A DNA stretch of 32,385 nt from Chrysochromulina tobinii (taxonomy: Eukaryota). Each line of letters begins with the position of its first letter. Positions within the stretch are counted from its first letter, which is position 1. The translations under genes were made by a program, and so were the position numbers. The stretch covers positions 1 through 32,385 of the forward strand of contig JWZX01002813.1 of the NCBI GenBank assembly GCA_001275005.1. The letters run 5' to 3'. The notes beneath the pieces are model-generated. The model had not been told where the DNA came from, did not search any database, and worked only from the letters and a program-made list of their open reading frames with translations. Below, in pieces: positions 1 to 31,273 of the stretch.

Positions 1-535
1 GGGCCCGCGCTTCGCGCAGGAGCCGGGGGCCGCCGGCGCCGCGCTGCGCTGCGCTTTCGCGGCGCTCGGGGCCGGCGTCGGATGTTCGTCGGCGACTCGC
101 GGCTCTCGCGGGCGGCGGCGCGACGCCGCCCCGCCCCGGCCGGGCCCGACACGCTCATTCTCGCTCCGCGACACGGGCCGGGCGGACACGCGACTTTCGC
201 TCGCTAAATCACGCACCAACCAAACGTGTCCGGCCACGACCCACGACCCGCGCCGCGTCCGGCGGCCGCGCACAACCATGCAGATCATGCGGCCATGGAT
301 GCATGCGGCACAAATTACAAACCGAACCACAAGCCGGCCGAGGACGCAATCTCCGGCATCCCGTGTACCTCCTCGTGTAGCATACGCGGCCTGTTCACTT
401 GGCCGCGGGGTGCATCATGTGCATGCCGCTCTCGCCCGGCCGTTGCACCTTTGAGCACGGCGCGTCGCGAGAACAACTGCCCGATTGGCAACTGCCCGAT
501 TGGCCCGTCGCCACCTGCCGAGAGGGGAGAGCTTT

Positions 536-4516: not shown

Positions 4517-5026
4517 CTACTGGCGGCGATACTGCAGGTGCCATTGGCAGCAGGCTCGCCCATCCTGGTCTTGCCCTTGCCCGCTGCTGCCACTCGGGGC
4601 GCCTGCCCCGAGGCCTCTGCTGCCCATTCTTCCGGCACTAGCGCCGGCAACGGCGATGGTGCGGATGCCGCCGTTGGCACCACCGCGGCCGCCAGCGCCG
4701 TTGCCCCCATTCGAGCTGCTGTCGCTCGACTCGCCTAGCTCTGCATGCACGATCCAGTCGATTTGGACCTCGAGGCTGCTGTGCGCGGTGGCGGTGGCGG
4801 CCTGGCGCGCGAGCGCCACGTCAAAGCCCATCGCAAGCAAAGCGGCTTCGGTGTGCGAGAATTCCGCGCCTGCCGTTCCTGCCGTGCCTGCCGTGCCTGC
4901 CGTGCCTGCCGAGCCTGCCGTGCCTGCTGTGCCCGAAGCGCCTTCCGCGCCTGCCGCAACACACGAAGCCGACGTGAAGGGCTTGGCGTGTGGGTTGAGT
5001 ACGAAGCCACTGGCAACGGCGCAGGG
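4517..5026 (-). pseudogene. Detached 3' part of the ankyrin-repeat gene (PAM2 motif + UBA domain), cut off by the transposon
   Basis: Reads PCAVASGFVLNPHAKPFT...(GTA)n...EAALLAMGFDVALARQAATATAHSSLEVQIDWIVHAE..., in frame with the 12355-9764 ORF once the element and one TSD copy are removed. Confidence 0.88.
4868..4931 (+). repeat. 9-bp tandem repeat (GCCTGCCGT, ~7 imperfect copies) encoding a Gly-Thr-Ala linker on the minus strand
   Basis: gcctgccgt-tcctgccgt-gcctgccgt-gcctgccgt-gcctgccga-gcctgccgt-gcctgctgt. Confidence 0.85.
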
Positions 5027-5035
5027 CTTCGAGGT
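5027..5035. repeat. Left target-site duplication CTTCGAGGT
   Basis: An identical 9-mer at 9764-9772 directly abuts the other terminus. Confidence 0.95.
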
Positions 5036-5143
5036 TACGGCTGCCTATTTGCCATAAACACTGTGTGACAGAGAACAGCTCTTGGCGTGACCTAAAAAAT
5101 TATCGAACGATTGGGTTGGAATCTAGATTTTTTTCTCTGTACC
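5036..5143 (+). repeat. Left terminal inverted repeat (~108 bp)
   Basis: TACGGCTGCCTATTTGCCATAAACACTGTGTGACAGAGAACAGCTCTTGGCGTGAC...CTAGATTTTTTTCTCTGTACC aligns to the reverse complement of 9655-9763. Confidence 0.95.
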
Positions 5144-5254
5144 ATGAGCTAACGAGAGTGGGGTTGTTCCTATGTAAGTTTTTAATACTTAGGCGATAAG
5201 ACGAAAGAGTATCGTTTTCGGCGGCTTTTTCCATGGCCGTCCTTGGCACTTTTT

Positions 5255-7450
5255 ATGGCTGACGGACGCAAGCGGCCGTGGAAGCCCGTGAAGCGCCGCT
5301 CGGCGTCCACTGGCAGCGGCGGCGACGTCGCCGACGAGGGTATCGAACTGGTCGACCTAAGAGCCGTCCACGACGAGCTCGTCGATGAGCGGCGACTTTT
5401 GATGCAGCCGCTGCAGAGTGAGGGCCTCTACAACATGCACGAGGCCGATGAGAAGGCTCGACTTGCGCGCGACTTGTGGAAGGGCGATTTTTCGGCATCG
5501 ATGCTCCTGCTGCGCGATCAGAACCCGCAGCTCGTCGAGGTGCTGCGGGCAAAGCTGGCCAACTCGTCGGATGCGACACGTTCAAGGGTGGCAGCTGTGG
5601 AGCGGTACATTGACGGTGTGCTGCTCGACTTATGCAGGGCGCAGAACATGTTCAAGATCCCGCTGCTCACCGCGGCTACGAGTCTGATGTGCGAGGTTAA
5701 CAAGACCGCGCGCGAGTACCACGACACTATCTCCGCGTTCCATCTCGGCGCGGCGTGCTCGGAGCGTTGGGTTGACGAGTTCCTGACCCTCGCGAACGCT
5801 TGCCGGCCGGCTCCGACCGAGGCGATGCTCCCGGGCGTGATGGCGTGCTGCTTCGACAACCTGTCGATGAAGATCGACTACAGCTCGTACTCAACCGAGG
5901 GCGAGACAGGCCGTCTGCTCGACATGACCAACTGGTTTTCGACGCAGCTGCCGGCGCACCTCGCGCCAAACTTCGACGCGGCGGCGATCTGTGCGCGCCG
6001 CGCCGCCCCCCCGCATCCCTGACCTGCTACTGATGACATGCGTGTGTGTGCCGGCATCGTGGCAGTTCATGATGGTCCCTTCGCACGCCTCTCGCTCCGC
6101 GACTTTGGCAGTTTATTTTATTCGGATAATCCAGATATTGTTGCGAATAAGACAGCGCGATGGATTCGGTTTTTGAATGCTGAACGCAATGGGCGCTTAC
6201 TTGATCGCCCTGCGTATGTGGCAGAGTGGCAACCACACAAGGTTTATCATGAACCTATGTACGGTGTGCTCCAATCATCGTACCAAGACGTGGAATTAGA
6301 GCTCCGAGTCATGTGTGGTCGACCGGCCGTGTGTGGCACCCCTCCGGCCCCTTATACGGACCATGACCCAGACTACCCAACCAAATTCAGATCGTGCAAG
6401 ATAATGTTTGTGGCTGGAGATGGACTGGCACTGATGCGACTCAACCACTTACTGGCAAACAAGCCTGATGTGTATATTGACCAGACCCCGTTGATTATTC
6501 CTATTCAGGGTGAGCATCCACATGGGCTTTTTCATGTCATGCATTGCGAGTGGCGCCTGCACCGCCAATTTATAATGTGGTGCGCTGGCGAGGTGAACAA
6601 CCAGCAGGTGATCGATGACCCAAATGTTTCCGTCTTCAATGAGCATCGATTTTTTTACCTCCATGTGCTTACCCGTGCGTGTGCACAATATATTATATTC
6701 ATCTCGAAGACCGCGGGGGCGGAGACTCTTGATGAGCCGATTGCTTTTTTGGCCAAGTCAGAGGCCAACATTGATTTTGCATGGGTTTGTCATTTCTTAT
6801 ACGATGCAGGGTTTTTCGTGCTCGATTTTTTGCAGTCAGTCCGTGCAAATCGCAGTCATACGCTTGATTTACTCTGGCGGGAATTCTTTGCGTCTGCGCA
6901 CAGTGGCACAGCCAATAAAACGCAGTATGTGCCTATGTCAATCATGCGAGTATTTTGGGGTATGGCCCTCACCCCTGAGCTCAGCAAGCTGTACCATAGA
7001 ATCCGTACTTTGCCCGGTGGTTTGGGGGCGGTCGGGTGGGATATGGCAGTGGAGATGCTCAATGCAGCGATCAAGGCACACGTCGCACACAGAGTCAGCG
7101 AGGCTCAGATCAATAGGTTCATTCGTAGCTGGGCACTCTTGGAATGTGTGCAGAAGAAGATGCGCGAATTCATCTATCCCGGGCGGAGTGCGCGCCAAGT
7201 TCCAAATTTGGCAGATGCGAACAGGGATGTTGCGCGCCTTGTTGAGCGCTTCAAGGCTGTCATTGGTACTACCTGGGCTCAAGCTGTGCGACCGAATCAG
7301 ACCAGCCATGTCACCACTGGAGCTCAGCGCCTCATGGTACCATGGCGCGAGGTCGCAGCTGTCATGAACCGGACGGGCGCGGAGGCTCCTGCAACGTACG
7401 TGCGCAACCATGTGACCCCCCTCACTCCCTTTTTTACCTGGGACCCATGA
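5255..7450 (+). CDS. Putative DDE transposase (DUF6589/Academ-type); 2 exons (5255-5990, 6066-7450), ~706 aa
   Basis: Lies inside the TIRs. Motifs CCFDNL (Asp 5855-5857), FVAGDGL (Asp 6419-6421), GLFHVMH (His 6533-6535), GTANKTQY and GWDMAVEMLNAAIK (Glu 7052-7054) follow the DN / GD / GLFH / DxxxExxN pattern I recognise for DUF6589/Academ transposases. Confidence 0.82.
5991..6065 (+). other. Intron (75 nt) in the transposase gene
   Basis: GTGCGC donor, CTGAC/CTGAT branch-like motifs, GGCAG acceptor. Phase-1 join T|TT gives AAIF-HDGPF and links ORFs 5243-6022 and 6038-7450. Confidence 0.85.
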
Positions 7451-7732
7451 GTAGAGTTCCGATTATCGGAGATTATAATAGATCCCATCCTTTAAATATA
7501 TTTTTTGTATAAGTCGCTTCCCAGTGCACAAGGGAGGTACCGCAAGACGGAGAAACGCAAACGGAACAACTTAATTATATTTACGGGCGGCCGGCGGCGT
7601 CTGTGCTGCTCCCCAGAGTATTACTAGAGTATTACTGAGGTGAGTGTGGATAAGATGTGGATAAGATTGTGGAAAGAGGGATAGGGTGGTGTTAATAAAC
7701 ACCGGGGTAAAATGAGTAAAACCGAAGTATGA

Positions 7733-9554
7733 TCAGTGGCACTCGAAAAATAGATCGAGTGCCACTGGTGTCGCCGCCGCCCCTGCACCGGGCGTCATCT
7801 CGGCTGCGCCTGCGCTCGTCGTGCGCACACCCTCAGCGCGCTTGAGCATGAGCAAGCCCGCCTGCATCTTGGCTTGGAGGACCGCGATCTGGATGTCCTT
7901 ATCCGTTGAGGCCTTGAGCTCCTGGTACTTCTGCTCGACCTCGTTGGCCTTTTTTTCCGCGGCAGCCGCTTTCGCCTCCGCGGCAGCCTTGTCCTTCGTG
8001 AGCGCGTCGACCTTGGCCTTGAGCGTGGGGTGCTCCTGGATCATGCGCACCTGCTCTGGCGTCAGCTTCACACCTGCCAACACGCCAGGCAACCACACAC
8101 GAGGCACGCACGCTGGATGAGGAATCAATTCGGGAATATAAATATTCCGTCGGATGTGGGCATGGCGCGCAGGAGCACACCGTCAACCTTGGGCTTCTTG
8201 TTCGGGTCGACCGGTGCCGCTGCGCCTGGCAGCTGGTCCGGCTTGCGCTTGTTGAGCGCCCCTGGCGGGCGCCCACGGCCACCTTTGGCAGGTGGTGGTG
8301 GTGGTGGTGGTGGCTCGCCGCCTGGCGCGGCTGCAGGCGCGGCGGCCGTCGCCGCGGCGCCAGGTGGTGGTGGCTCGCCTGGCGCGGCTGCAGGCGCGGC
8401 GGCCGTCGCCGCGGCGCCAGGCGCGGCGACCGCCGCGGCAGCGGGTGCGGGGCGGCGCAGCCTCCCGTTGCCTGCAGCCGCCGCAGCGGCAGCAGCAGCA
8501 TCGGCGTCATCAGTGCGCGCGCGCGTCAGGAGCTCGCGCACGGGTGTGATCTTCGTGATGGCGTGCTCGCCCGAGCCAAGATCAGCCACAGCCGCCTCGA
8601 GCGCCGCCATCAGCAGCGGCGCAAACTCATCAGTCCTGCCAGCATGTGCGCGACGAAGCGAAGTGAGAATAAAATCGGAATATATTTCGGAGGCAATCAT
8701 GCGCGCGTGTGCGGCTCTCTCGCACGTGCGTGGGGATGGGCGGGCGCACACCGGAGCTCCTCCATCACCTTCGCCACCATCTCGGCCGTGGGCTTGCCTG
8801 TCGAGAGGTCAACGGGCACCTCGATGATGCGCTCGCGCAGCGGCTCGCCGTAGAAATTATTCACGCTGAGCATCGCCTTGGTCACGAGCGCCCAGCGCGC
8901 ACCTGCCTGTGTGCCGCCGGCGGCCGACTCGCCTGCATCTCGTGCGCGCGCCCCGCGCCCCGCCGCCGTCACTCGCTCGGCCTTCTCCATCTCGAGGAGG
9001 ACCTTCTTGATGGCCACCTCGTAGCCCTTGTCGACCCACCCCTTCAGGTTCTTGGTGTTTCGGATGCCAAGAACCTTGAACATGCCGAGGTGCGAGATCA
9101 GCACGTCCGCGTAGTCGCGTAGCTTGTCGGTCTCGGTGTCGACGAGCACCGAGAGCGACTCGAGGTTGGGGTCCGGGAACTTGAAGGACTGCAGCCACTT
9201 GTTCTCGTCAAGAAGCGCATTGGCAGCAGGCCGCGACTGCATCATCTCCTTGAGCTTCTCGACCGTCACGCCGTAGAGGTAGGTCGCGCCGGTGTTGGAT
9301 ATCTTGGTGGCGACGATCACCGCGTCGAACTCCTTGAACTTGGCAATGAGCGGCTCGCCCGAAGTGACCGCCACCTCCTTGCCAAAGTGGAAGTAGTGGC
9401 CGGGCACGCCGGCGTTGTAGGTGAGCTTCTGCACAACCGAGGCGACGTTGGCGCAGATAATCGCCGGCTCCTCGAGGTCGTTGGTAATCGCGAGCGGCGC
9501 CGCCTTGTTCGGGATGAGCACGCGGCCGTCGGTGACGAGGTTCAAGGCCGCCAT
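7733..9554 (-). CDS. Transposon ORF2: unknown N-terminal domain, Ala/Pro linker, AT-hook, coiled coil; exons 9554-8752, 8635-8181, 8073-7733 (532 aa; possible extra 66-nt in-frame intron 8907-8972)
   Basis: Two GTGTGC...GGCAG introns (8636-8751, 8074-8180) join three ORFs in frame (EELR|TDEF; KVDG|VKLT). AT-hook-like KGGRGRPPGALNKRK; coiled coil LKAKVDALTKDKAAAEAKAAAAEKKANEVEQKYQELK. Confidence 0.8.
8302..8420. repeat. ~57-60-bp tandem duplication in the ORF2 linker (PGAAATAAAPAAAPG(G)EPPPP x2)
   Basis: GGTGGTGGTGGCTCGCC...TGGCGCGGCTGCAGGCGCGGCGGCCGTCGCCGCGGCGCCAGG occurs twice. Confidence 0.85.
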
Positions 9555-9654
9555 GTACTGGTCTCGTTATACGCGTGACAATGAGCTATTGTTAGGCGGG
9601 ATTGTATAATTCGGGATTAAGACCGCGTCTATGTACTACTTTCCTCATATGTAA

Positions 9655-9763
9655 GGTGTAGAGAAAAAAATCTAGTTTTCAACCCAATCGTCGATATTTT
9701 TTTACTGTCACGCCTAGAGCTGTTCTCTGTCACACAGTGTTTGATGGCAAATCCTCAGCCGTA
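9655..9763 (-). repeat. Right terminal inverted repeat (~109 bp)
   Basis: Reverse complement reads TACGGCTGAGGATTTGCCATCAAACACTGTGTGACAGAGAACAGCTCTAGGCGTGAC...CTAGATTTTTTTCTCTACACC. Confidence 0.95.
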
Positions 9764-12355
9764 CTTCGAGGTCAGGCTGAGCCCAGACAAGCCAGAGGCA
9801 CTCGCGCTGAGGGCTTTGGTCGAGGGCGAGGCTGACAGCGCCGCCTCCACTATCTCCCTCTCCCCAAGCAATTGCTCCATCGAGCTCGGTCCGGACATGA
9901 TATTCGGTGGCGGCTGGGGCGAAGCCTTGGGCGACGAGCGCGAGCCGCCCATGGGCGAGCCGCCCGTGGGCGAGGGCGGCTCATGACGACCGATCGCGTA
10001 GACCTCACTGGAGACGGAGGTGGAGGCGGTGGGCGATGTCCCGGATGAGGTTGATGAGACGCGGTCGTCCTCGTCGTGCGTCCATTTGCGTCCCTTGCGC
10101 CGGTTCGGGCTCTCGACCACATTCCACGCGCTGCCAGCATCGCCCTCGCCTCGATGGCCCACTGGAGGTGCAGCGTCGAGCCACGCCCACTCCGTATGCG
10201 ACGAGCTGCCGAGCGCCATAGGGCCGGGCTCCATCACACTGTGTGGCGAGCGCGGTGCCGCAACCGGCTTATTGTGGCCGATGATCTGGCCGACGGAGAC
10301 AGCGCCCGCTCGAGCTTTTCGTTCAGCCAAGGCGGGCTGCGTGGGCGGTTGTGTGGGGTTGCTCACCTTTGGCCGTGCAAGCGCCCGTGCAAGCGCCCTG
10401 GCCATGCTACGCAGCCGCCGGCCCACCCAGCGCAGCAGCTGCCCCCCCTGGAGCAGCACGCCCACTACGACGCCCAGCACGGCGGTGAGAGCTGCACCAC
10501 GGATCACCGTAGGGTCATGCCAGCTCGGGGGGCTCGAGAGGGCGCCGCCCGAGACGACGCCCGCGCGAGCGCGAGCGCTCGACACGGGCTCAAACGGCGC
10601 TGCTTCGAAGGGCATCGCGCCGGTCCCAGGCCGAGGTGCGCTCGCGTGGCTACCAATGGCACCTGGAGTAGCGCCGGATGCGCCGGCGGCCGTCGCGGCG
10701 CTGGTCGTGGTGGCGGAGGCATCCGGCGCAGAGTTCCGGAGACCCGCCTTGATTACTTTGATGAGGCGACGGGTAACGGCGACGTGGTGCGTGCCGATCG
10801 GCGGCCCGAGCGCGCGCATGGCGAGGCCGTTGACCTTCTCGAGCGCCTCCCTCGCCAGATCGAGTGCGCTCAGCCCTTGCCAGCACACATGCGGATCTGC
10901 ACCCGCGCGGAGCAACTCCTTGACAACCTCCGAGTGCCCAGCCCACGAGGCGAGCATCAGGGCGCTCATCCCGGGGACGCGCCGTCCTGCAAATGTTGGC
11001 TGCTGGAGGGCCGCGGGCGAGGCCGCCACAAGCGGCGCCACGAGCTCCGCGTGTCCACGCCACGCCGCCAGGTGCAGCGCATTCATCCCGACCATTGCGC
11101 CCGAATGTGCTATCGCTGTTACACGTGCTATCGCTGTTACACTCGCTTTGGCGCTGAGGAGCACTTGGGTAGCCTCAGCGTGCCCGTTGGCGAGCGCGAG
11201 CAGGAGCGCCGTTGCACCGTCCAGAGGTGAGCGAGCATCCGCCTGCGCGCCCGCCCCGAGCAGGCGCTTGAGTGCGGGCAGCAGATTGTGTGCGCTTGCC
11301 AGCTGGAGCGCCGAGCGAGCGGGCGCACCGCTGTCCACGCTTGTGGCCAGATTCCCTATCAGCTCGTGGAGCTTCGATGGCACGGCGGCTGCCTCGCCCG
11401 AGGCCAGCGGAGGGACGCCCAGAAGCGCCTCGACCACCTCACGAGCCAGCCTGGCGGCGCGGCTCACCCGCACACGACGCTCCTCGGACGCCTCCCGAGC
11501 ATGAGGAGCACTCGCCTCGTTCGTCGGCGAGATGCCGTCGGAGCTTTCTTCCGAGAGGACGGCCCCCGTGGCCGAAGGCCGCAGCTCCTGTTGGGTCATC
11601 GATGCGAGCGTGAGCTGCTCGTGCAAGGCAAAGAGCTGCCCGACGGGCATGTCGATGGGCCCGGGCGGCACGCAACGGGGGGGCAAGGCCGAGAGCGCCG
11701 GCAACGGAGGGAGTGGCGGCAAGTCGGCGCATCGCTTGGCAATAGGCGGGGAGGCTGGTGTGGGGACAGACCGAGAGTCCATTTCCGCGTGGTCTTTAGC
11801 GGCGGGTGCGGAGTCGTGCACACTGCCAACTGCGCCGGCCTGCACCAACGCCTCCACCACGCCCACGTGGCACTGCTGCACCGCGAGCGAGAGGATGCTC
11901 ACGCACGAGCCCGGCAGGAGGTTGGGGTCGGCACCCCCGGCGAGGAGCAGGCGCACGATGTGCGCGTGCCCCCGGTTGGTGGCCGCTGAGAGCGCGCTAT
12001 CTCCAAGAACGTCTTGCGCATTCACGTCGGCTCCGGCAGCCAGAAGGACGGTCACCGACTCCTCAAGACCGGATGTGGCTGCCGCCATGAGCGCCGTTTG
12101 CCCGTCAGCGTCACGAAGGTTGGGGTCGGCTCCAGAGGTTAACAGAGCGCGCAACACCGCGACACGCCTACGCGAAGCGGCCAACATTAGGCTTGTTGAC
12201 CACGGGTGCGACTCGATTCTTTCGTCACCGCGGGCCTCGCCAGAACGGATCAGACGGAGAACCTCATCAACTTTCCCGAGCGCCGCTGCTTCGGTGATGA
12301 GGCGGGCGGATGAGAAGGTGAGAAGGCCGGCGAGGAGGGCATACATAAGGCGCAT
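9755..12355 (-). CDS. Ankyrin-repeat membrane protein, 5' part; truncated by the transposon (stop TGA inside the right TIR)
   Basis: Signal-peptide-like MRLMYALLAGLLTFSSA; many ankyrin repeats (GQTALMAAA...LLAAGADVNAQD, GDSALSAA, GMNALHLAAWRGH, GMSALMLASWAGH); hydrophobic AALTAVLGVVVGVLL followed by an Arg-rich segment. Confidence 0.88.
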   Translation of the reverse strand: MRLMYALLAGLLTFSSARLITEAAALGKVDEVLRLIRSGEARGDERIESHPWSTSLMLAASRRRVAVLRALLTSGADPNLRDADGQTALMAAATSGLEESVTVLLAAGADVNAQDVLGDSALSAATNRGHAHIVRLLLAGGADPNLLPGSCVSILSLAVQQCHVGVVEALVQAGAVGSVHDSAPAAKDHAEMDSRSVPTPASPPIAKRCADLPPLPPLPALSALPPRCVPPGPIDMPVGQLFALHEQLTLASMTQQELRPSATGAVLSEESSDGISPTNEASAPHAREASEERRVRVSRAARLAREVVEALLGVPPLASGEAAAVPSKLHELIGNLATSVDSGAPARSALQLASAHNLLPALKRLLGAGAQADARSPLDGATALLLALANGHAEATQVLLSAKASVTAIARVTAIAHSGAMVGMNALHLAAWRGHAELVAPLVAASPAALQQPTFAGRRVPGMSALMLASWAGHSEVVKELLRAGADPHVCWQGLSALDLAREALEKVNGLAMRALGPPIGTHHVAVTRRLIKVIKAGLRNSAPDASATTTSAATAAGASGATPGAIGSHASAPRPGTGAMPFEAAPFEPVSSARARAGVVSGGALSSPPSWHDPTVIRGAALTAVLGVVVGVLLQGGQLLRWVGRRLRSMARALARALARPKVSNPTQPPTQPALAERKARAGAVSVGQIIGHNKPVAAPRSPHSVMEPGPMALGSSSHTEWAWLDAAPPVGHRGEGDAGSAWNVVESPNRRKGRKWTHDEDDRVSSTSSGTSPTASTSVSSEVYAIGRHEPPSPTGGSPMGGSRSSPKASPQPPPNIMSGPSSMEQLLGEREIVEAALSASPSTKALSASASGLSGLSLTSKYG
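9764..9772. repeat. Right target-site duplication CTTCGAGGT
   Basis: Identical to 5027-5035. Confidence 0.95.
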
Positions 12356-12650
12356 CTCCACCTAGCTAGGGGCTCCGTCTCAGGCTCGTCGCCCGGGCTC
12401 GTGCAGCACCCTCACCACGAAGGCCCCTACCAAGCCTGTTCCGTGAGCGGGGGGGAATCGGTGCTTACGGTCGGGAAGGCCGACAGGAAGTTTCGAATTG
12501 ACGAAATGAAATGAATTTTCAAGAAATGCGTTGGAAGAATACGGGGTGGGGAAGTATGCGTTTGGAAAAAAATCCCGTTGAAACACATACATGTAACAAG
12601 TGTTCACACGTTGAGCAAAATTCCTCAGCGGGACCTCGAAACGAATTTCG

Positions 12651-15600
12651 ATGCTTGTTCACCAGCGAGCGCCGTTCAACGCTTCCGCCCTCCTGCGCGC
12701 GGACCCGACCGTGGCGGCTGTGCTCGACTGGGCCCACAATTCCCAAAAGGTGGCCGTGCTCGCTAAAGCCTTCCGGTGCCTTCTGGACGCGAGCGCCGCG
12801 GCTACCAAGGCCACACGATGCCGGTGGCATGAGAGGACTCAGAGGTATAAATTGGAGCGGCGGCGCTTGCTAACATCTTTAATATGCTGGCACCGCGGCA
12901 CGGCGTCGCTCATCGCACGCAGGGCCGAGATCTCCCTCCGGCGCGGCCGAAGAGCCGTAGATCATGCCTTTGCCTTGTGGCTGCGCTGGTGTGCCTTGCA
13001 CCTTCGATTCGAGAAGGTGGCAGTGCACAGGTACCAGCTGCGGGCGGCCAAGCGCGCTCTGACGCTCTGGCGATGTCCGCAGCAGGAGCTCAAGGCGCGG
13101 CGGCAGCTCGTCGAGCCGCGGTACGTCTATGCACAGCACAGGCGGGTGCGCGCGTGCCTACTCGGCTGGGGACGTCGACAGCACGAGGTACGCGGCCTTG
13201 GCGAGGCGTCTGCGCGCGCCCACACCGCCCTCGCGCAACGCAGGCTGACTGCCGCGGTGCTCCGATGGCGCTACCAGTGGGAGGAATGGGCGTGCTTGCA
13301 ATTCGCGGTGTCAGCCCACATGCGCTCAGCACTCCGCCGCGTCTGCGCCGCGATGCGCGCTGCCGGACTGGCCGATGCGATGCGATGCGGTGCTGAGGCG
13401 ATGATGCACATGGGCGCGGCGCACCATCGGTCGTGTGCGCTGCCTCACTCGATGCTCAGCTGGTGCCGTCGAGCACGTTGGTCCGCACAGGCGCGCGCGC
13501 TCGATGGTCGGGGTCGACGCATCTGGCTCATCTCAATCAGTCGACGCGTGCTGGTCAAATGGCGTGCCTCGTGCCGGGCGCATGAGGCACGGCTGTCGCT
13601 CGAGGGCACTGCCGTCTTGGTGTGCTGCAAGCGCGGCGTGTACCGGTGGGCTGAGGCCGCGCAGCAGCGGCGCGCGATCAACACACGGCTGCCCGTGCCG
13701 CGGCTGCGGACTGCGCTCCGTCGGTGGCGGCGCAGCAGTGCCTACCTGCGCGCGTCGCGCGCCGTAGCGGAGCACGTGCGCGCAGTCAGCGTGCTGCGCC
13801 ACTTTGGGGGCAAGGCTGTGCGCCGTTGGCGGGCGCGCTTTGGCGCGACGAGAGACGCCGCTGCGCTGCAGCTGACTGGAGCGCTCTACTATCGGCGTCG
13901 GCGCATGGACTGGGCGAACATTCGGATTCGTTCGTGGTGGCGTGCGCGCGTGCGCGTGCGCCTCGGACGCGCACTCGAGACCTGGCATGGGCGCGCGCAG
14001 TGCGCGCGTCTCGAGCGCCACTTGGACGATGTGCTCAGCCAGCCCGATAATTGGATAGAGCGCTGGCAGCAGCAGCGCGCGCTCACGGCAGCGCTCGGCA
14101 CATGGAACACGCGAGCGCGCCAGTCGTCGCCTTTACATGGCGCTGCCGCTCGCAATTCTGGCGCTCGCAATCCTGATGCCGCTCGCAATCTTGCATCCAC
14201 AGCTCCATCTACGCGTACTCATTGCTTGCATCAGTGGGCTCGTCCTCCAAAGTTCGACGTTGCCTTGAGCACCTGCGCTCTCAAGCACTCTACGAGCCGA
14301 GGGCAGGCTCGCGTGCTGCAAGGGCTGCTACGGCACGCGACCCAGAGACAGGCGGATGCGCGCCTGTACGCCCTCGCGGGGCGCCAGGCTCGGCGCCTTG
14401 GGCTCTGGCAAGTGTGGCGGCCGTTGCTCGCCGCTCAAGAAGCGCACCGCATCGCCTCACTGGGCTTCGTGGCGAGCTGTAGATTCGGCCTCGCGCGCGG
14501 CTGGCGCAGCTGGCGCTCGAGGCGCTCCGCGCTGCGCCGAGGACCACGCTACACCGCCGCCGACGACACCCGCATCGCCCTGAACCGCGGCCTCTACCTC
14601 TGGTGCGAATGGCACAAGGCGGAGAATGTGATTGGCCACAGGCGGTTTCGACGGCGCGGAGCGTGGGCCCGGCTGCTCTTGTGGTATGCAGAGGCGCAGG
14701 TGCGTCGGGCAACGAATGGTGCCGCCGACACGCTGGCGCGGCGCAAGCAGGCACCCGTTGTGATGCAAGCCTTCCGCAGCATGTGCGCCGCCACCGCGCG
14801 CGACCTTCAGCTGCAGGCGACTGCTGGGCGAGTCGCTGCGTGGCGATCGACGGAGCGCCGGGGCTTCGAGCGCCTGCAATCGTACGTGGCGCTCACGATG
14901 ACGCTCGAAGCCACGGGCACGGCCGTGCATGAGCTGCTCGCACGTATTGGGTGTAGACGCGCCATCGCCAAGATGCACACGCACGCCCTCCCTCTGGCTC
15001 ACGCAGCACGCTGGCGGCGGCGCAGGGCTCTCGCGCGCTTGCTGCGCCTGTGCCTGGATGCACGTGTCTGGAACTTCGAGCGCGCCACCGCGAACGAGAT
15101 CGCCTCAATTTGGGTCTCGCGGCAGATGCGGCGGCGCGGCTTCGAGGCGTTCCAAAGGCACCAGGCGTCCACACTGCTCGCGTCCAGACTGCTCACCACG
15201 GCGCTCCAAAGGCAACGTCTCGATGCCGAGCACGAGCATACCCGCGGGCGGCGTGCGGAGGCGAGCGCGCGCGCGCCTCTCTTCCTGCTGCGCCGCCCCT
15301 TTGCCCGCCATCATGACGAGTCTCGGGTGCGGTTGGCTCTCGAGGCGGCGTCCGACCAATTCCGCCGCCTCGTGCAGGCCCGAGGCCTCAGCGCCTATGT
15401 CGCCGGCGTGCGCACGTGCGCCGTCTTGCGGCGGGCGCGAGAGCGGAACGTCGCGCTCGTCGAGTTGCGACGCGCGACGCGAAAGATGCGCGCTGCGTGC
15501 GAAGCGCGAGCTCGCCTCGTTGCGCTCTCAGCCCAGGCGTCCACACTGTTTGTGCGCCGAGTGGCGCCGGCACGGTCACTGGTCGCCTGGCGGCGGATGG

Positions 15601-17348
15601 CGGACATTCGATGGGCGGCCGCAACAGTCACCGAGCGCTTGCGGCGTGGGCGCCTTGGGTCCGCGCTTGGCATGCTGAGGACGACGGTCAGCATGGCTGC
15701 GTGGCGTGTGGCCTCCAGCGCGACCGGACTCTCACACTATCGGCGCGGCCGCCTAGGGTCCCATTGGGTAGCATGGCACACGTTCCTCTTGAGCGAGTCC
15801 GCATTGGCGCTGCAACGGGAGGCGGCGGCACGCATGCATCGGCGGCGGCAGCTGTGGAGTGCCACTGTTGCGCTCTCCGAGCACTGCCACTTCCAAATGA
15901 GCATCCCTCGCGCGACGCGGCGCATCGAGCGGCGCCGGTACGCGGAGGCACTGGCGCTCTGGCGCGGCAGGAACCACATGGTTTGCCAGTTTGTGGAGGT
16001 CACCCTGCTGCTGAGGGCGCAGGAGGCTATGCATATGGCCCTCGTGCGCTGGCGCCGCTGGCATGAGTCCCGAGTCTGCTGTTCGCTGCTCGACACAGCG
16101 TCCTCGAGCGTCGCAGCCGAGTTTACAAGATCCGTGGGCGGAGGGCAGCGCTGGCGTGCGTGGCACCTGTGGCGAGCGTGGGCGATCGAGCAGCGCCTCG
16201 TGCAGACGCTGCAGCTTGCCACGGTACGGCTGCGCGCCGTCACGCTCGCGCGCGCGTGCCGCTCATGGCTGAGCTATTCGATCAAGCGATGCGAGCTCGA
16301 GCTCTTGAGCGATCGTGGGGCCAAGATCGGCTCCAGGTATGCCAAAACGATCGCGATGCGCCGCTGGCGGCCTCTCAAGTGGTTTGGAGAAACCACCTCG
16401 CTGCTCTGGCCAAACCACCACGCCTCGCTCGTTGTCGAAACGCTGTACCGGCGCCCCGTTCGCAACGCACTGCAACGTTGGCACTCGCACGCCGTCGCGG
16501 TGCTCATCAGCGAGCGGAGCATGCAGATGGCGGCCCTGGGTGTGCACAGAATCGCACTCGAGCGAGCCTTGTTAATCCTCGCACGGCACGCAGTGCGCAC
16601 CATCCGCTCCCTGGTGGTCGACCAGCTTGCCACCGAGATCTGCATGCGTCGAATGATCCTTGAGTGGTCCGTCAAGGCACGCCGGCTGCTTGTGCCGAGA
16701 GTGCACGAGTTCGATATGACGACCATCGCGCTGCGCTTCTGGCGGCTCCGGAGCCTCTTCGACGCCTTTGCGCGCCTCGTGGGCACTTCCTTCAAATACT
16801 CGCCGCTTGCCCAGACATTCCTCCAGGGCACTGCCGAGCAGGGGATTCTGCAGGGGACTCGCCGCTCGCCCTTGCCGCCGAGCCGCGCCGCCATCGAGCT
16901 GCCGCCGTCACTGCCGCCGGCCAAAGGATTCGTCACTGAGCCGGCCGAAGACTCCGCGGTGCCCCTCACGATCACTTCCAGGGTGGTGCGTGGCATTTTC
17001 AGTCAAACGGCCGATGGCCCGGCGGTGCACCTCAGCCGCGGCGTCTACAGTCACAGCCAGGAGAGGCGCGAGCACGCACGGTTCGAGGTGCGCGTCGAGG
17101 CGTGCCTGACGAGCGCGACGGGCAAAACAGAGGCGGCAGGGCTTTCGCCGCCGGCCTCACCTGAGGCGCCCACGACAGAGGCGCCTACCCTCCGCTGTCT
17201 CACGCCGCCGACAGGGCTCTCGCCGCCGCCGCTGATGGCTGAGGTGGAAGCGGCGCTTCAGCGGCTCAACGCCACCGCCGCCACCGCAGCCGCGCACCCG
17301 CGCTCCGATCCAACGCTCCTCTCACGAGCCCAGAGAGACGAGCAGTGA
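12651..17348 (+). CDS. Sfi1-like Trp/Arg-rich repeat protein (putative centrin-binding, basal body/centrosome), 1565 aa
   Basis: Long ORF with recurring helical motifs of the type A..H....L..A/F..WR (LTAAVLRWR, LRTALRRWR, ALTAALGTWN, HMALVRWRRW, VRNALQRWH) and a Pro-rich C-terminus. Confidence 0.65.
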   Translation: MLVHQRAPFNASALLRADPTVAAVLDWAHNSQKVAVLAKAFRCLLDASAAATKATRCRWHERTQRYKLERRRLLTSLICWHRGTASLIARRAEISLRRGRRAVDHAFALWLRWCALHLRFEKVAVHRYQLRAAKRALTLWRCPQQELKARRQLVEPRYVYAQHRRVRACLLGWGRRQHEVRGLGEASARAHTALAQRRLTAAVLRWRYQWEEWACLQFAVSAHMRSALRRVCAAMRAAGLADAMRCGAEAMMHMGAAHHRSCALPHSMLSWCRRARWSAQARALDGRGRRIWLISISRRVLVKWRASCRAHEARLSLEGTAVLVCCKRGVYRWAEAAQQRRAINTRLPVPRLRTALRRWRRSSAYLRASRAVAEHVRAVSVLRHFGGKAVRRWRARFGATRDAAALQLTGALYYRRRRMDWANIRIRSWWRARVRVRLGRALETWHGRAQCARLERHLDDVLSQPDNWIERWQQQRALTAALGTWNTRARQSSPLHGAAARNSGARNPDAARNLASTAPSTRTHCLHQWARPPKFDVALSTCALKHSTSRGQARVLQGLLRHATQRQADARLYALAGRQARRLGLWQVWRPLLAAQEAHRIASLGFVASCRFGLARGWRSWRSRRSALRRGPRYTAADDTRIALNRGLYLWCEWHKAENVIGHRRFRRRGAWARLLLWYAEAQVRRATNGAADTLARRKQAPVVMQAFRSMCAATARDLQLQATAGRVAAWRSTERRGFERLQSYVALTMTLEATGTAVHELLARIGCRRAIAKMHTHALPLAHAARWRRRRALARLLRLCLDARVWNFERATANEIASIWVSRQMRRRGFEAFQRHQASTLLASRLLTTALQRQRLDAEHEHTRGRRAEASARAPLFLLRRPFARHHDESRVRLALEAASDQFRRLVQARGLSAYVAGVRTCAVLRRARERNVALVELRRATRKMRAACEARARLVALSAQASTLFVRRVAPARSLVAWRRMADIRWAAATVTERLRRGRLGSALGMLRTTVSMAAWRVASSATGLSHYRRGRLGSHWVAWHTFLLSESALALQREAAARMHRRRQLWSATVALSEHCHFQMSIPRATRRIERRRYAEALALWRGRNHMVCQFVEVTLLLRAQEAMHMALVRWRRWHESRVCCSLLDTASSSVAAEFTRSVGGGQRWRAWHLWRAWAIEQRLVQTLQLATVRLRAVTLARACRSWLSYSIKRCELELLSDRGAKIGSRYAKTIAMRRWRPLKWFGETTSLLWPNHHASLVVETLYRRPVRNALQRWHSHAVAVLISERSMQMAALGVHRIALERALLILARHAVRTIRSLVVDQLATEICMRRMILEWSVKARRLLVPRVHEFDMTTIALRFWRLRSLFDAFARLVGTSFKYSPLAQTFLQGTAEQGILQGTRRSPLPPSRAAIELPPSLPPAKGFVTEPAEDSAVPLTITSRVVRGIFSQTADGPAVHLSRGVYSHSQERREHARFEVRVEACLTSATGKTEAAGLSPPASPEAPTTEAPTLRCLTPPTGLSPPPLMAEVEAALQRLNATAATAAAHPRSDPTLLSRAQRDEQ

Positions 17349-18355: not shown

Positions 18356-19558
18356 CTATGGCAAGCGCAGCAATTCCCAATCAACCGACTCCGCCATCGA
18401 CACGAAGCCCGTCTCGCTTCTCCAGCGCTCCACGCGCGCTTCCGCCTCGGGGCTGAGAAGCTCCTCAAACTCGACCCTCGTGATCCAGCGCATGACGGAC
18501 TCAGCAAGCACCCTCCTCGCCCCTCCATCCTCATTCGCGCCGGCACCGTGGCTCTGTAGCATCTCATCAACGTCACCCGGCCCGCCCTCGTCTGCCTTAG
18601 CCTCCTGCCCCCACCAGCCGACGCGCGCCTCGTATCCCCAGTCCTCAAGAAGTTTCAGCGTCTTGCAGTAATGCAGCGCCACCACGGGATTGCTTTGGCT
18701 CCCTGCGTCCGCCAGAAGCACCACCACCGGCGACGGGCGCGGCCCTGCAGCCGAGGACGACGAGGGCGGCGGCACCGCGTCGGACGCTGGCACGCCTTGC
18801 TGCTCTGATGCGGCCAGCTGCAGATACGCACGTAACTGCGTGGGCGAGCGATAAAACTGACCGCCGCCGCAGCTCCACTCCCCAAGTACAGGTACGCCAA
18901 AAGCCTGCGCGGCGCTCATCGACTTGAGAACCCCCTCGCACAGCCCGACCCACGCCGGCGAGGCGCTGGAAAGTGCAGGCGAGGCCGCTCCCGTCGCTCC
19001 CGCCGCTCCCGCCGCTCCCGCCCATGCGGAGCTCGCCATCGGCCGCGAAACGTGCAGAGGCATCTCAATGACCTCATCGACGCCTTGACCGCTGCCGCGG
19101 CTTCTTAGAATGCGCATCGACGCGTAGCCGCGCCCTGGCCGAGCTTGAGTGAGCGAAAACTGGTCGCCGAGCGTGAGATAGCGCCGGCCTGCGACGCGCC
19201 GCTCCAATGCCGCGGCTTCGGCGGTCTGCTCCCCGCAAGTCATCGGCAACATGATCCTGAGCGCGCCGCCGCCGATGCGCTGCTCCCAGTCGAGCGAGGG
19301 CACGAAAAAGGCGTCGAGATCGGCCAAATGCGCGAGATTGGGTACGCGAGGCATGCGGTCGTCCAGTTCTACGTGCGCAAGCACCGCCGGCCGCCACGTG
19401 CGGAGAAGATCGTCACCTCGGATCGAACCACTTCGGATGCCATACTTGCGCTGCAAAAAGGCCGCGTGCGCGTCCTCCAGCGGTGCCCGGCCTTCGACCG
19501 CCATGCGGCGAAGTAGCTGCCGAAATACCGCGTCCATGTCGGACGGCGTGAGCAACAT
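18356..19558 (-). CDS. Hypothetical protein (start uncertain; ORF extends to the ATG at 19597, 413 aa)
   Basis: Long ORF with protein-like composition, divergent from the 19820 gene across an AT-rich spacer. The N-terminus MQSALRGLARARQML looks like a mitochondrial presequence. No family recognised. Confidence 0.55.
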   Translation of the reverse strand: MLLTPSDMDAVFRQLLRRMAVEGRAPLEDAHAAFLQRKYGIRSGSIRGDDLLRTWRPAVLAHVELDDRMPRVPNLAHLADLDAFFVPSLDWEQRIGGGALRIMLPMTCGEQTAEAAALERRVAGRRYLTLGDQFSLTQARPGRGYASMRILRSRGSGQGVDEVIEMPLHVSRPMASSAWAGAAGAAGATGAASPALSSASPAWVGLCEGVLKSMSAAQAFGVPVLGEWSCGGGQFYRSPTQLRAYLQLAASEQQGVPASDAVPPPSSSSAAGPRPSPVVVLLADAGSQSNPVVALHYCKTLKLLEDWGYEARVGWWGQEAKADEGGPGDVDEMLQSHGAGANEDGGARRVLAESVMRWITRVEFEELLSPEAEARVERWRSETGFVSMAESVDWELLRLP

Positions 19559-19819
19559 CTGGCGGGCGCGCGCAAGGCCGCGCAAGGCGCTCTGCATCGC
19601 GTGGCGACGCGAACAAACGATTTCATTGATTTTTACCCGAGAGTTCCGGCATCTGAGAAGACTGGCAAAACTTACTTTGGGGACCGTTTTACTTCATATA
19701 CCATTTTGAGTTTTTTCTTGTGGAATTTGAGGACTTTTCAGGTGAGGATTTCGAAACGGACGAGCCTCACGCACGCTGTTCTAGAACAGATCGAGGCTAC
19801 ACCCGGCACCGGAGCTGAA

Positions 19820-22800
19820 ATGACTGTCATGAACCACAGCCCTTCCGGTACCTTCAATTCCGGCTCTTTCATTCAAGCACAGCTGGAGGAGGTTCATCGA
19901 CTGAAGGTTCAGGCCGATCACCTCCATGTCGAATGCATGGAGATGAAGATGGTCCTCGTCGATGCTTCGCAGCTCAGAGCGCGTGGCCTCGAAGCTTTCT
20001 ATGGCCGTGGCCTGAAAGAGCATAAAATGAACCTTGCGGACGTGCATCGTATACGTGCTGATGTTCTCGCCGTGTGCGAGCCATCCTGTTCGCTCCCTAG
20101 CGCAAACAAGGACGAGCAATCTAGTATGCTTGCGGTCCTTGCCATAGCATGCGCCGATATCAGCATCAAGTGGGTGTGGTGGGCTCGTGTCTGCGCTCCG
20201 TCGCTACGAAGCATGCCTAACGTGCTCGGTAATCTCGACCGGCCGAACGAGGCGACACCCGGCGACGAGGCGGAGCGCGAGCGCATGCGCCACAACGCCC
20301 TCTGGCTCTTCCTCACTTGCCGAGTGCTCGTGCTCTCGCGAGAAGGCGACGAAGCCAGGGCGCCGCCCCAGGCACTCGCCGAGCTGTGGCTGGCGACAAA
20401 GACGGCCACGCCATTCGGCATACGCCAGTGCCGGCCGGGGCACGAGCGTTGCGTCTCGATTCTCGTCGCACCCGCTACCTTGACGCCGGCGGAGGCTCGG
20501 CCCGGGGCTCAGCATGATGTGGAGAGTACGGCGGGAGGAGAGGCCGCGCCGCTCGCCTTGGAGGCTGCCGCAGCTGGGAGCAACGACGAGCAGGGCGCAG
20601 CTCGAGCCGCGACCGTCCCGACGAGCGGCTTCTCGCTCCGGGTCGCGATCGGTGGGAGCCCTACGCCAAAAGCGAATCGAACCGATGCCTCGCCGATTGT
20701 TGCCCGCACCTCTACGGCGCAGGTTGCGCTAGAGTCGGGGTCAAAGCTGTCGCCGGACCGTCGGCGAATGCATGAGCAGCTCCAAGCATGGGCGGCCCGC
20801 TCGTTGCTCGAGGCATACCTGGCCCTGCGGCCTCAGGCTGGCTATGCACTGAACGAAAATGACGACTTCGAGCGCACTGGGGTGCTGTCGCAGCTGCTGC
20901 TGATAGATCAGCACGTACGCGAAGCGGGCGCCACGACGGCCAGTGCCGAGAAGCCACCGCCACCTGTATGGCCGGCTCGCTCAGCGGCCCGTCTGCACGC
21001 CAGTGCAGCCGGCGAGCCAGCCGACGAGGCAGCGAGACTGGACCAAGGCATTGAGGAGGTCCAAGGACTCCCTCTCGCGTGGCACGTGGCCCCGGATTTC
21101 GGCTCGCCCGCTCCGTCGCCCACGGCGATTCGGCGGTCCACGGCGACGCACCTACGCAGCGCGCTCAAGGGCGAGAAGGATGGTGATGCGTTCGGTGGCG
21201 GACGCGGATTGATCCGTAAACGTCGCAGCCTAAGCCAGGGGTCACAACCCGTCCAGCTGGCGGAGGAACAGCTGCAGGACATGCTCAAGCGTTCGCTCGA
21301 GAAGCTGCAATCGCGGCTACCCGAGGTGCTCACCAAGGACGATTGGGCGCAGAAGCAGCTTGCAATGGCCATGGTGCGACTGACGACCACGGGCGAGGAC
21401 TCTCATGTGAGCCCGATGATGAAGAAGCTGACCCGCGCCGCGGCCAAGGTGATGGGGATGAACCGGGCCGCCCGGCGGGAGGATATCACCTCGAAGAAGG
21501 TGGAGATGTTGCAAGGAATGCACAACTCCCGTGCAAAGGGGGCTACGTTTCGAGACGTGCGGGAGTCGCTCAATGAGCCGGCGCAGGCGCTCATTCGAGC
21601 AAGCGCGGAGCGGCGCCAGCTGCTGCGCCAGATGCAAGTGCTGCAGGAGCACCACGCGCTGCTAGCCGACGAGAGGCGCATGGCAGAGGCCATTACCATG
21701 CACAGACGAGTGCGCCAGCTGCAGGCGGTGAATGAGGCAGCCATCCAGAGGGGCGACGACACGTTCGCCGACGTGACGCTCGAGATTGAAGCCATCTTTA
21801 AGATAGCCTCGGCACCGGCGGCCGTTGTGGCGCAGCTTGCGGCAGAGCATGGGGGGACAGTGGACGGAGCGCTCGGGGCGGTGGGCGAGGCGTTGCGTGT
21901 CAAGGAAGCGACGCTGCGCGAGCTCGGCCGTGCGTACCAGGAGGCGCAGGTCGCGACTATCGAGGCGGCCCGACAGTGGAATGACGCGACGAAAGACTAT
22001 GCAAAGAGCAAAAAGGAGGAGGAGGAGGTGATGGTTGAGGAGCTCGAGCTCGTTTGCAACGCTCAGGTGACCTCGTGGCAGCGCCAACTCTGCGAGGCCG
22101 AGCACACGCAGCTTGAGTACTTGTTTGCCCGCCTGGAGAGCAGTGGCGAGAACGCGGCGCCCCATCAGGTGCATGAGTCCTCCCCATCTCGCCTTGTCGC
22201 GTGGAATCGCGCCGCGGCCGAGCAGAAGGCGAAGAACGCCGAGATGCTCAACGGGCTGAGTACCGCCCATGCGGAGGTGGCCACGGCGGCGGCGGCATTT
22301 GCCGAGGCGGCCGAGAGCGCCAAGGCAGCTGCGCAGACGGTGGGTCAGCTGAAAGAGAGCTTCGAGCGCATCTCATCCTTCCTGTCGGTACGTCCCAAGG
22401 GCAATGCGGCGCAGTGGGACAAGTGGCTCATCATTCTGCTCGATGCCGCGGACGCAGTGCGCAGCGCGCAAGAGGAGTACGCGCCGCACGTGCCAAAGCC
22501 GTCCGTGATTCCTGACTCCTCTTTGGCAGCGACGCCCACAGCTCGGGGAAGCAAGAGCGGCGCCGGTAAGCGCGGTGCCCCTGTGGGGATCGTCAGTGCG
22601 CGAGAGAAGCGGATGGCAGCCGAGAAGGCGGCGTTGGAGAAGGCGTTTGCCAACATAGCGGCGTTGGAGAAGGCGGCGGCCGAAAGGGCTGCATCTGAGC
22701 GGGCGCAGCGGGCGGAGAAGGCAGGTCGGGCAGCGGCGGAGCGGGCGAAGACAGGCGACTCGGGGAGCGACGACGAGGTACTGCACCGTGCCGAGAAGCG

Positions 22801-23755
22801 CTACAGGCAACAGCTGGACCACGCGGTGGACGAGATGGCCCGGCTGGTGCGGGAGTGCCGCGGCGTGCGACAGGCGTGGGAGGTCGAGATGCTCGCGCTC
22901 GCACGCGAGGAAGAGGCCCTTCTCGACCGCTTTGGCGTCGCTCCCAAGCCAAGAGCAAAGAGCCGAGAGGAGGAGCCAGCCTTGGGCATCGACTTTGGCA
23001 TTGCGCCTAGCTCTGCACCCATCTTCCAGTGGAGTGAGCTTGAGCGAGTCCAAGTGGACGAGGAGGCCGAGGAGCTCGCCCCTCCTGCATTTTCTCCAGC
23101 TGCCGAGGAGCTCCCGCTTCCACCTGTGCCGGCCCCAACCCCAGCCCCACCCTCGCGCGTGCCCACCCCTCCCCCAGCGCCCGTACTGCCACCGCGCAAG
23201 CCACGGCCAAAGCTGCCCAAGTACGCGCCCTTCAGCCCGCAGGCGCGCGCCAAGGACGGCTTCATGGAGAGCACCGGCTCGAGCTCAGCACGGCTCGGCG
23301 TGCGTGATGCGGACTCCACATGGCTCGAGTCGTCACTTCGAGTGCCGACTCCCCTGGCTGGCCGACACTGGCTGCTGCGCGATCTGGACACCGGCTCAGT
23401 GCCCCCTCACCGGCGGCCCAAACTGCGCAACGAGTGGTCTCTCCACTCGCCGCCGCGCGGGCCGGTCGTAGTCAACGCCTTCGGTGGTGCTGTCTCGACA
23501 GCTTTCTCGAGCTATGTCGGGCAATGGCAGCCGATCAGTCCGCGACCGTTGCCTCCGCGCCCCATCTCCACAGCCCCTGGTGGCACTCGTGCCGGCCTAG
23601 GCCCACAGCCCCTGCCGGCGGGATGCTGGGGCAGCCTCGCGATGAGGGATCCGCTTTTAGCGCCGCCTCTTGAGAGCCCACGCCCGCTCTTAGCGCCCCT
23701 CTTAGCTGCTGAACGCAGACCCGTGGATCCAGAGATCCAGCGATCGTGGTGGTAG
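19820..23755 (+). CDS. Large coiled-coil protein with Pro-rich C-terminal region (~1311 aa from the first ATG)
   Basis: Uninterrupted ORF with extended Ala/Glu/Arg-rich heptad-like regions (AAEKAALEKAFANIAALEKAAAERAA). Start and 3' end uncertain. Confidence 0.7.
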   Translation: MTVMNHSPSGTFNSGSFIQAQLEEVHRLKVQADHLHVECMEMKMVLVDASQLRARGLEAFYGRGLKEHKMNLADVHRIRADVLAVCEPSCSLPSANKDEQSSMLAVLAIACADISIKWVWWARVCAPSLRSMPNVLGNLDRPNEATPGDEAERERMRHNALWLFLTCRVLVLSREGDEARAPPQALAELWLATKTATPFGIRQCRPGHERCVSILVAPATLTPAEARPGAQHDVESTAGGEAAPLALEAAAAGSNDEQGAARAATVPTSGFSLRVAIGGSPTPKANRTDASPIVARTSTAQVALESGSKLSPDRRRMHEQLQAWAARSLLEAYLALRPQAGYALNENDDFERTGVLSQLLLIDQHVREAGATTASAEKPPPPVWPARSAARLHASAAGEPADEAARLDQGIEEVQGLPLAWHVAPDFGSPAPSPTAIRRSTATHLRSALKGEKDGDAFGGGRGLIRKRRSLSQGSQPVQLAEEQLQDMLKRSLEKLQSRLPEVLTKDDWAQKQLAMAMVRLTTTGEDSHVSPMMKKLTRAAAKVMGMNRAARREDITSKKVEMLQGMHNSRAKGATFRDVRESLNEPAQALIRASAERRQLLRQMQVLQEHHALLADERRMAEAITMHRRVRQLQAVNEAAIQRGDDTFADVTLEIEAIFKIASAPAAVVAQLAAEHGGTVDGALGAVGEALRVKEATLRELGRAYQEAQVATIEAARQWNDATKDYAKSKKEEEEVMVEELELVCNAQVTSWQRQLCEAEHTQLEYLFARLESSGENAAPHQVHESSPSRLVAWNRAAAEQKAKNAEMLNGLSTAHAEVATAAAAFAEAAESAKAAAQTVGQLKESFERISSFLSVRPKGNAAQWDKWLIILLDAADAVRSAQEEYAPHVPKPSVIPDSSLAATPTARGSKSGAGKRGAPVGIVSAREKRMAAEKAALEKAFANIAALEKAAAERAASERAQRAEKAGRAAAERAKTGDSGSDDEVLHRAEKRYRQQLDHAVDEMARLVRECRGVRQAWEVEMLALAREEEALLDRFGVAPKPRAKSREEEPALGIDFGIAPSSAPIFQWSELERVQVDEEAEELAPPAFSPAAEELPLPPVPAPTPAPPSRVPTPPPAPVLPPRKPRPKLPKYAPFSPQARAKDGFMESTGSSSARLGVRDADSTWLESSLRVPTPLAGRHWLLRDLDTGSVPPHRRPKLRNEWSLHSPPRGPVVVNAFGGAVSTAFSSYVGQWQPISPRPLPPRPISTAPGGTRAGLGPQPLPAGCWGSLAMRDPLLAPPLESPRPLLAPLLAAERRPVDPEIQRSWW

Positions 23756-24417: not shown

Positions 24418-25100
24418 TGCGTTGCGAGCTGCCCGACGGGAATCGCATGGCACACGGTGTGGCAGTGGGTCAGCAAAGCCATCTCATGCGGCACGATCAC
24501 CACCTCCTCGCTTGTCACTACGATCAACGAACACCGCCAAACAGCCAAATGTGTACTCTCTACATTAAGGCTGTGTACATGTATTCTCAAACTCTTCACG
24601 TTCTTGTGTGCCACCACAATTCGAAATGAGCTCACTGACCAGACATGTTCTACCTGAGTACGTCCGGTCGTAGGGGGGTCAACGAACAATCAACGAACCG
24701 CCCCTCGCCACAGGGGGCGAGTTCTAGGTATGGTCGCCCGCCTAACCCTTAAGCCCTAACCCCCCGGCCTCGTACATGTACCGGGTAGCTCGTTTGCGTT
24801 TCTCGTAAGATAGACAGTCCGGTGAGACCATGAAAAAAGACAACTTTTATACCTGAGTACTTTACATCGCTCTTCGCATAGGATATTTCAGCGAAAAGTT
24901 GTGCGCAATCAGTGCGCAATCAGGTAATAAGAAGCTTTTTACCGGTACAAAACTTGCCAGAACTTAGCCACTGGCTGTCGTGTGATCGCTCGGCTCGCGG
25001 TAAATCGCCCATGCTGGCTGCGCAGCGCTCTTTCAAGGCATCGTACGACGTGCTCATGTGTGACACTAAGAAGAGCAGCGCCCCGCCCCGCAATCCAACG

Positions 25101-26130
25101 ATGAAAGAGAAGGACTACACCGAGGTCAAACGGATCGGAAAGGGCTCTTTTGGCATGGCGATGCTCGTGCTCCGAGAGGAGACTCGGGAGCATTTTGTGG
25201 CAAAATACATGAAGTTCAAAACGTTGGAAAAGGAGCAAAAGGAGTTCATGCTCAGAGAGGTCCAGACAATGCATCACATTAGCTGCCAAGGTAGCCATCC
25301 TTACATTGTCCAATTCCGCGAGTCCTTCGTTACATCCTCAGGGCTGCTGTGCATCATCATGGACTATTGTGACAGCAGCGACATGGCCCACCTGATCGCG
25401 ACACAAAAGAAGCGAAGCGTCCCCTTCACCGAGGAGCAGGTGCACCTCTGGCTTCTGCAGCTTCTGAGCGCCCTCAACTTTCTGCACTCGTGCGACATCC
25501 TCCACCGAGACATAAAGCCAGCAAATGTCTTTATGAACGCGGGATGCTGCAAGCTCGCCGACTTTGGCCTTTCGAAACAGGTTCTGACAGCCTACGGAGG
25601 CAGGCAGGCGCACACTCAATGCGGTAGCCCGCTGTATCTTGCGCCAGAGGTGCACATGGGCCGCAAATATGACAGGGCTGTCGACATATGGTCGCTTGGC
25701 TGCACGCTCTTCGAAATCATGATGCTCTCGCACGCCTTCGTGGGCGCCGACAATGCCGAGATCTTGAAGAACATCGCCTGGGGGCGCCATGCCCCGATCG
25801 CAGGCTCCTGGTCGAACGAACTCAAGGCTATTCTCAAGGGGATGCTTGTCCTTAAAGCGAGTGACCGCCCTTCTGCTCTCGATGTCGATGCATCAGCCCA
25901 TGTTTGCTCCAGCGCTCCACGCCAACAGCCTGCACCCGGAGGCGCTTGCTCACGTTGATGTAAAGGAGCGGCCAGGCATGACAACGAGGACTCCTGCCAT
26001 CGACTGTGCTGCCTTGCAAGCTGACTTAGAGGGAAACCTCGGCACACTCCAGGCCATACTCGAGAAGCAGGCCATCCTCGAGAAGCAGGCGCATGACACG
26101 CTTCGGCGCGCAAATGAAAAGCTCATGTGA
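25101..26130 (+). CDS. NIMA-related (NEK) Ser/Thr protein kinase; apparent 1-nt frameshift at ~25887
   Basis: IGKGSFG, VAK, HPYIVQFRESF, LCIIMDYC, HRDIKPANVF, DFG, GSPLYLAPE, DIWSLGC, DRPSA. The expected end of the kinase domain (MHQPMF) and a coiled-coil tail lie in the next frame. Confidence 0.88.
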
Positions 26131-31155: not shown

Positions 31156-31273
31156 GTACCGTGGGCATTATCTTTTTTTTGAGTAAATTCCTAACTCGCC
31201 GCGTCAAGTTTTTCATTGGACCTTGTCCTTGGTCCCGCGTTCCGTCCACAGGTGGGCGATCGGGTCCGCGTGA

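Follow-up and report, generated by a model that had tools for sequence, protein, structure and literature searches.

A compact two-gene transposon, likely Academ-related, with neither helicase nor XPG nuclease in Chrysochromulina tobinii

Described Academ elements and the insertion at 5036-9763

AcademH transposons encode an SF2/RecQ-like helicase, and AcademX elements encode an XPG nuclease with the transposase. According to the available part of PMC10045372, the target-site duplication (TSD) measures 9-10 bp in AcademH and 3-4 bp in AcademX, a difference that seems tied to the encoded helicase and nuclease. Here we describe a transposon of 4,728 bp at positions 5036-9763 of contig JWZX01002813.1 from Chrysochromulina tobinii, whose 32,385 nucleotides are referred to as the window. 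With AcademH, as presented in the accessible portions of PMC10045372 and PMC10799480, the element shares a DUF6589-like DDE transposase, terminal inverted repeats (TIRs), a 9-bp duplication at the window site and a separate second gene, but it has no helicase, is only 4.7 kb long, carries a novel partner gene has a sister family with a 5-bp duplication and likely lives in an algal host. Like this element, AcademX has no helicase, and the two would share a superfamily provided that the DUF6589 link is correct; in contrast to AcademX, the element encodes no XPG nuclease, its duplication is 9 bp (5 bp in the sister family) instead of 3-4 bp, and its two genes are separate. As neither a helicase nor an XPG nuclease was found, the element is neither AcademH nor AcademX. 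It probably represents a third Academ-type design. On balance, we favor the reading of an intact and likely autonomous cut-and-paste element from a compact, likely Academ-related lineage with two genes, whose conserved partner protein is likely a non-enzymatic helper binding DNA or chromatin. The literature searched, which did not extend to Repbase, yielded no account of an algal Academ lineage lacking a helicase, and the two-gene helicase-less design is not described in the available parts of PMC10799480, PMC5751038, PMC9587614, PMC12730594, PMC10294476, and PMC12210899.

The element has TA...TA termini (left end TACGGCTG, right end CAGCCGTA) and inverted TIRs of ~110 bp with 97 of 110 columns identical in an end-to-end alignment. 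When duplication lengths of 2-15 bp were tried at the 5036-9763 junctions, an exact match occurred at 9 bp only, and such a match arose by chance in 1 of 300,000 random junction pairs drawn from the flanking host DNA. The TIRs and TSD expected of a DDE cut-and-paste transposon are thus both present. Excision of 5036-9763 with one TSD copy fuses the frames 12361-9773 and 5035-4517 into a minus-strand open reading frame (ORF) of 1,035 codons, which contains ankyrin repeats as well as PAM2-like and UBA-like parts. Because excision restores this host frame, we conclude that 5036-9763 was genuinely inserted into a gene of the host. No empty-site joint of the host gene (12361-4517, minus strand) was present among those listed from four sequencing runs.

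Contig depth in two DNA runs, which is not equal to copy number and may derive from the window's own source, rose from 37 and 43 in the flanking DNA to about 114 and 140 within the element. The contigs covering 5056-8348 and 8392-9763 were unbroken, with no branch to extra sequence within either, and one run contig joined a different flank ending exactly at 5036. The depth ratio, the unbroken contigs and the second flank suggest about three alike element copies, without a longer version, among the joints listed. The window has A at positions 9569 and 9594 where the run contigs have T, so that two bases set the window copy apart from the collapsed family sequence. A second, related element of 4.5 kb was found in the same DNA runs.

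Coding content and affiliation of the transposase

The transposase (706 aa, plus strand, two exons) and the partner protein (532 aa, minus strand, three exons without internal stop) are encoded by convergent genes, outside of which just 219, 282, and 209 bp are non-coding. All three introns were skipped in RNA contigs, that of the transposase in contigs of one of the two RNA runs and both partner introns in contigs of 2/2. An earlier sequence-only reading had proposed the long TIRs with TA...TA ends and a 9-bp TSD, an intact spliced transposase with a second gene, no space for another large ORF, and the lack of helicase and XPG motifs, all of which was borne out. A six-frame scan of 5036-9763 revealed no DExH/D motif and one Walker-A-like string, located in a short frame on the strand opposite the start of the transposase, while the partner gene contained neither motif. 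None of the five element frames scanned matched a Pfam helicase or XPG family. The same holds for the related loci, whose comparison set comprised 80 metagenome loci: neither family was matched in 88 long frames or in 18 further frames, and the motif scan returned a single DExH-like string, inside a transposase frame.

The D-D-E triad is invariant across the transposase relatives, the full-length members of which measure about 680-750 aa, and a structure model made for the relative P0008 shows an RNase H fold with the conserved D-D-E residues. The sole recurring Pfam link is to DUF6589, which we take as a stand-in for Academ transposases; 13 of 40 relatives matched it at E ≤ 1 (1 above the cut-off), and the matches occupy two separate profile regions at about 67-160 and 269-400. 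The window's own transposase exons yielded no DUF6589 match in the Pfam scan. The Atlas score of 0.98 agrees with an Academ affiliation, and the Academ likeness read from the sequence alone is likely correct. MuDR membership had been named as an outcome that would overturn that reading; none of the 40 transposases matched a MULE family, and the MULE or FLYWCH/SWIM Pfam domains of MuDR were not found.

The modeled transposase fold resembles P-element, Hermes, and RAG1 enzymes, the nearest solved structure being the P-element transposase (PDB 6p5a, 9% identity). It is improbable, however, that the transposase forms a separate branch near P, hAT, and Kolobok and that the DUF6589 likeness reflects only a shared DDE core with a helical insertion. 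The PDB matches included no identifiable Academ structure, which leaves P as only the nearest solved fold, and DUF6589 was matched in both profile regions, in agreement with the Atlas result, whereas none of the 40 transposases matched a P, hAT, or MULE Pfam family (hAT domains such as PF05699, 0/40). The element further differs from P in having no THAP or P-element Pfam match and in its second gene.

The strongest candidate for an already described equivalent is Shanks. The available part of PMC10138859 places this element in a 16-element Repbase hATv group from three haptophytes and reports 6.8 kb, 26-bp TIRs starting TAGGGCGG (TAGGG), a 7-bp TSD, filing as hAT, and two ORFs (793 and 580 aa) without Pfam or HHpred match. 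On that description, hATv/Shanks is like the window element in having two ORFs of similar size without database matches, TA-ended TIRs and likely similar hosts, but differs from it in total length, in the length and terminal sequence of the TIRs, and in the TSD. The Shanks group keeps alive the alternative that Repbase already contains this genuine lineage, under haptophyte hATv (Shanks) or algal Academ entries, as do a 397-aa transposase piece encoded in the window that is already in NCBI nr, UniRef, and EukProt, and the related locus L007, which starts TAGGG as Shanks does. We nevertheless regard this alternative as unlikely: the elements described here measure ~4.2-4.9 kb with TIRs of 60-190 bp and duplications of 9 or 5 bp, the Shanks end motif was not found in 79 of the 80 loci (the remaining one has an internal match with two mismatches), and hAT Pfam families matched 0/40 transposases, although Shanks itself also has no reported Pfam match.

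Related loci, the partner protein and duplication length

The lineage comprises 403 representatives at 50% identity (E ≤ 0.001) and is a widespread group, likely Academ-related and likely algal. The GC content, the intron style and the mixed-culture and freshwater labels of the sequencing runs would suit an algal host, possibly a haptophyte. TIR-bounded relatives of ~4.2-4.9 kb are L001, L015, L024, L027, L042, L046, L056, and L060. A TAC(G)G end followed by a TGTGYGAC box at +27 or +28 is common to eight ends from five families, which makes the box a likely candidate for a transposase-binding site; it was not found near the available ends of the other TIR-bounded loci. In the mechanism that we propose, the transposase would bind the TAC(G)G end and the box at +27, excise the element at its inverted ends and integrate it with a stagger of 9 bases; no helicase encoded by the element would be needed, and host repair would close the gaps.

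The N-terminal domain of the partner occurs in 33 of the 80 loci (11 convergent, 22 divergent), and a homologous partner is present in 24 of the 27 loci of at least 3.8 kb (exceptions L007, where only the C-terminal part of the partner is covered, L009, and L035), a count that includes the window's own family (L011) and rests on profiles built from many of these loci. As an independent homology test, the three partner groups aligned by hhalign at 97.6% and 97.7%. In unrooted trees of this lineage only, the convergent layout forms one side of a fully supported branch. Transposase and partner trees of 27 two-gene loci have 16 of 24 splits in common, among them every one of the 11 partner splits supported at 94 or more. 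Because the two-gene plan and the homologous partner recur across the lineage and no helicase or XPG was found, we conclude that the window element is not a deletion derivative, in line with the compact lineage that the sequence-only reading had raised as possible. A deletion derivative, or a dependent element borrowing a helicase from a longer AcademH-like partner, would fit the 9-bp duplication, which is the AcademH length in the accessible part of PMC10045372, and the search covered the window, the related loci and the run contigs rather than the whole genome. This explanation is nonetheless very unlikely, as the compact plan is repeated in TIR-bounded relatives across the tree and the two long run contigs show no branch to extra sequence; 7,987 candidates of 1,316-3,755 aa included no longer, fused transposase, which is weak evidence in the same direction. 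Telomere-like (TAACCC)n runs were observed within introns of the related elements L009, L020, L021, and L022.

The partner protein is predicted to be well folded (predicted local distance difference test, pLDDT, 84.5), and the test for a BAH fold gave a weak fold match only, with no clear structural relative. The AT-hook foreseen for the partner is present as an AT-hook-like GRGRP in exon 2. The protein is predicted to bind DNA or chromatin, and may sit on the element or on chromatin via its BAH-like module, AT-hook, and coiled coil. Its good fold, retention throughout the tree and lack of a clear fold match, together with its place in the slot of the AcademH and AcademX enzymes, would also suit an unrecognized nuclease or DNA remodeler that replaces the helicase or XPG step. 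Such an enzyme has a low probability in our view: across 27 two-gene loci, the partner tree is 2.3 times longer than that of the transposase, the three partner sequence groups share no acidic or histidine cluster that is obviously invariant, and L035 exchanged the partner for a SAP-bearing gene. In L035, the partner's place (504-1943 and 3-500, minus strand) is taken by an unrelated frame of 480 aa and, after it, a SAP domain (PF02037, above the cut-off); the transposase of this locus nests among partner-bearing elements, an accessory gene swap.

VANDAL/VANC and the Myb helpers of Harbinger provide the comparison for an anti-silencing or target-steering job of the partner. Given the fast evolution of the protein, we tentatively favor such a role for the non-enzymatic helper. 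The lineage bears a previously unnamed, co-inherited protein family that evolves fast and may act as a chromatin factor carried by the transposon.

The view that the 9-bp TSD is an AcademH-type trait of the lineage is not supported. The sister family L015 (4941-9650; 4,710 bp, TA-ended, ~72% DNA identity to the window element over matching coding stretches) is flanked by an exact 5-bp duplication, which weighs against that view. Its removal keeps a host frame of >1,600 codons open, while removal of 9 bp does not, and a 5-bp match arises by chance in about 2 in 1,000 cases. As the left end of L015 has one extra base, there is a small chance that a 9-bp duplication was damaged later. Duplication lengths rest on the two insertion sites with both flanks, the window (9 bp) and L015 (5 bp), and 9 bp is therefore not a lineage constant. 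Both of these insertions sit in long coding frames. An intact, transcribed 4.7-kb element that lacks both enzymes yet made a 9-bp duplication, together with a close relative that made one of 5 bp, renders the idea of an enzyme-dependent TSD length directly testable. A more far-reaching proposal, which we consider doubtful, is that planktonic algae harbor a third Academ lineage, so far uncatalogued, with the helicase/XPG slot taken by a fast-evolving BAH-like chromatin reader that counters host silencing, and with the transposase alone setting 9 versus 5 bp; if true, this would overturn the proposed link of Academ accessory enzymes to TSD length.

Feature coordinates and further observations in the window

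Table 1 Features of the transposon and of the interrupted host gene (window positions)
Feature	Position	Strand	Remarks
Interrupted host gene, 3' part	4517..5035	-	PAM2-like, UBA-like; both under Pfam cut-offs
Left copy of 9-bp TSD, CTTCGAGGT	5027..5035	.	
Left TIR	5036..5143	+	opens TACGG; TGTGYGAC box at 5062-5069
Transposase exon 1	5255..5990	+	residues 1-245; first catalytic Asp D201 at 5855-5857
Transposase intron	5991..6065	+	75 nt, GT-AG; skipped in RNA run X14; alignments of intron-less relatives run through it
Transposase exon 2	6066..7450	+	D364 at 6419-6421; ExxHxxxH 395-402; E575 at 7052-7054; stop
Partner exon 3	7733..8073	-	likely coiled-coil C-terminus, stop
Partner intron 2	8074..8180	-	107 nt, GT-AG; RNA contigs
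Partner exon 2	8181..8635	-	Ala/Pro-rich linker; AT-hook-like GRGRP at 8283-8257
Partner intron 1	8636..8751	-	116 nt, GT-AG; RNA contigs
Partner exon 1	8752..9554	-	conserved ~265-aa folded domain: beta-rich (weak BAH-like match), then helical hairpin
Right TIR	9655..9763	-	closes CCGTA; TGTGYGAC box at 9729-9736
Right copy of 9-bp TSD, CTTCGAGGT	9764..9772	.	
Interrupted host gene, 5' part	9773..12361	-	ankyrin repeats

The transposase intron contains a stop in the window copy, whereas close relatives such as P0001 (731 aa) have an open, in-frame stretch there. Third-position GC is 0.82 both in the partner gene and in transposase exon 1, and drops to 0.55 in transposase exon 2.

Elsewhere in the window, the long frames 12615-17348 and 19517-23755 had no Pfam match. 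Ordinary host genes encode an autoantigen p27 zinc finger protein (539-1558), a protein kinase (24882-25955), a class II tRNA synthetase (26952-29123), a PhoD phosphatase (29596-31167), and a WW domain protein (31274-31975).
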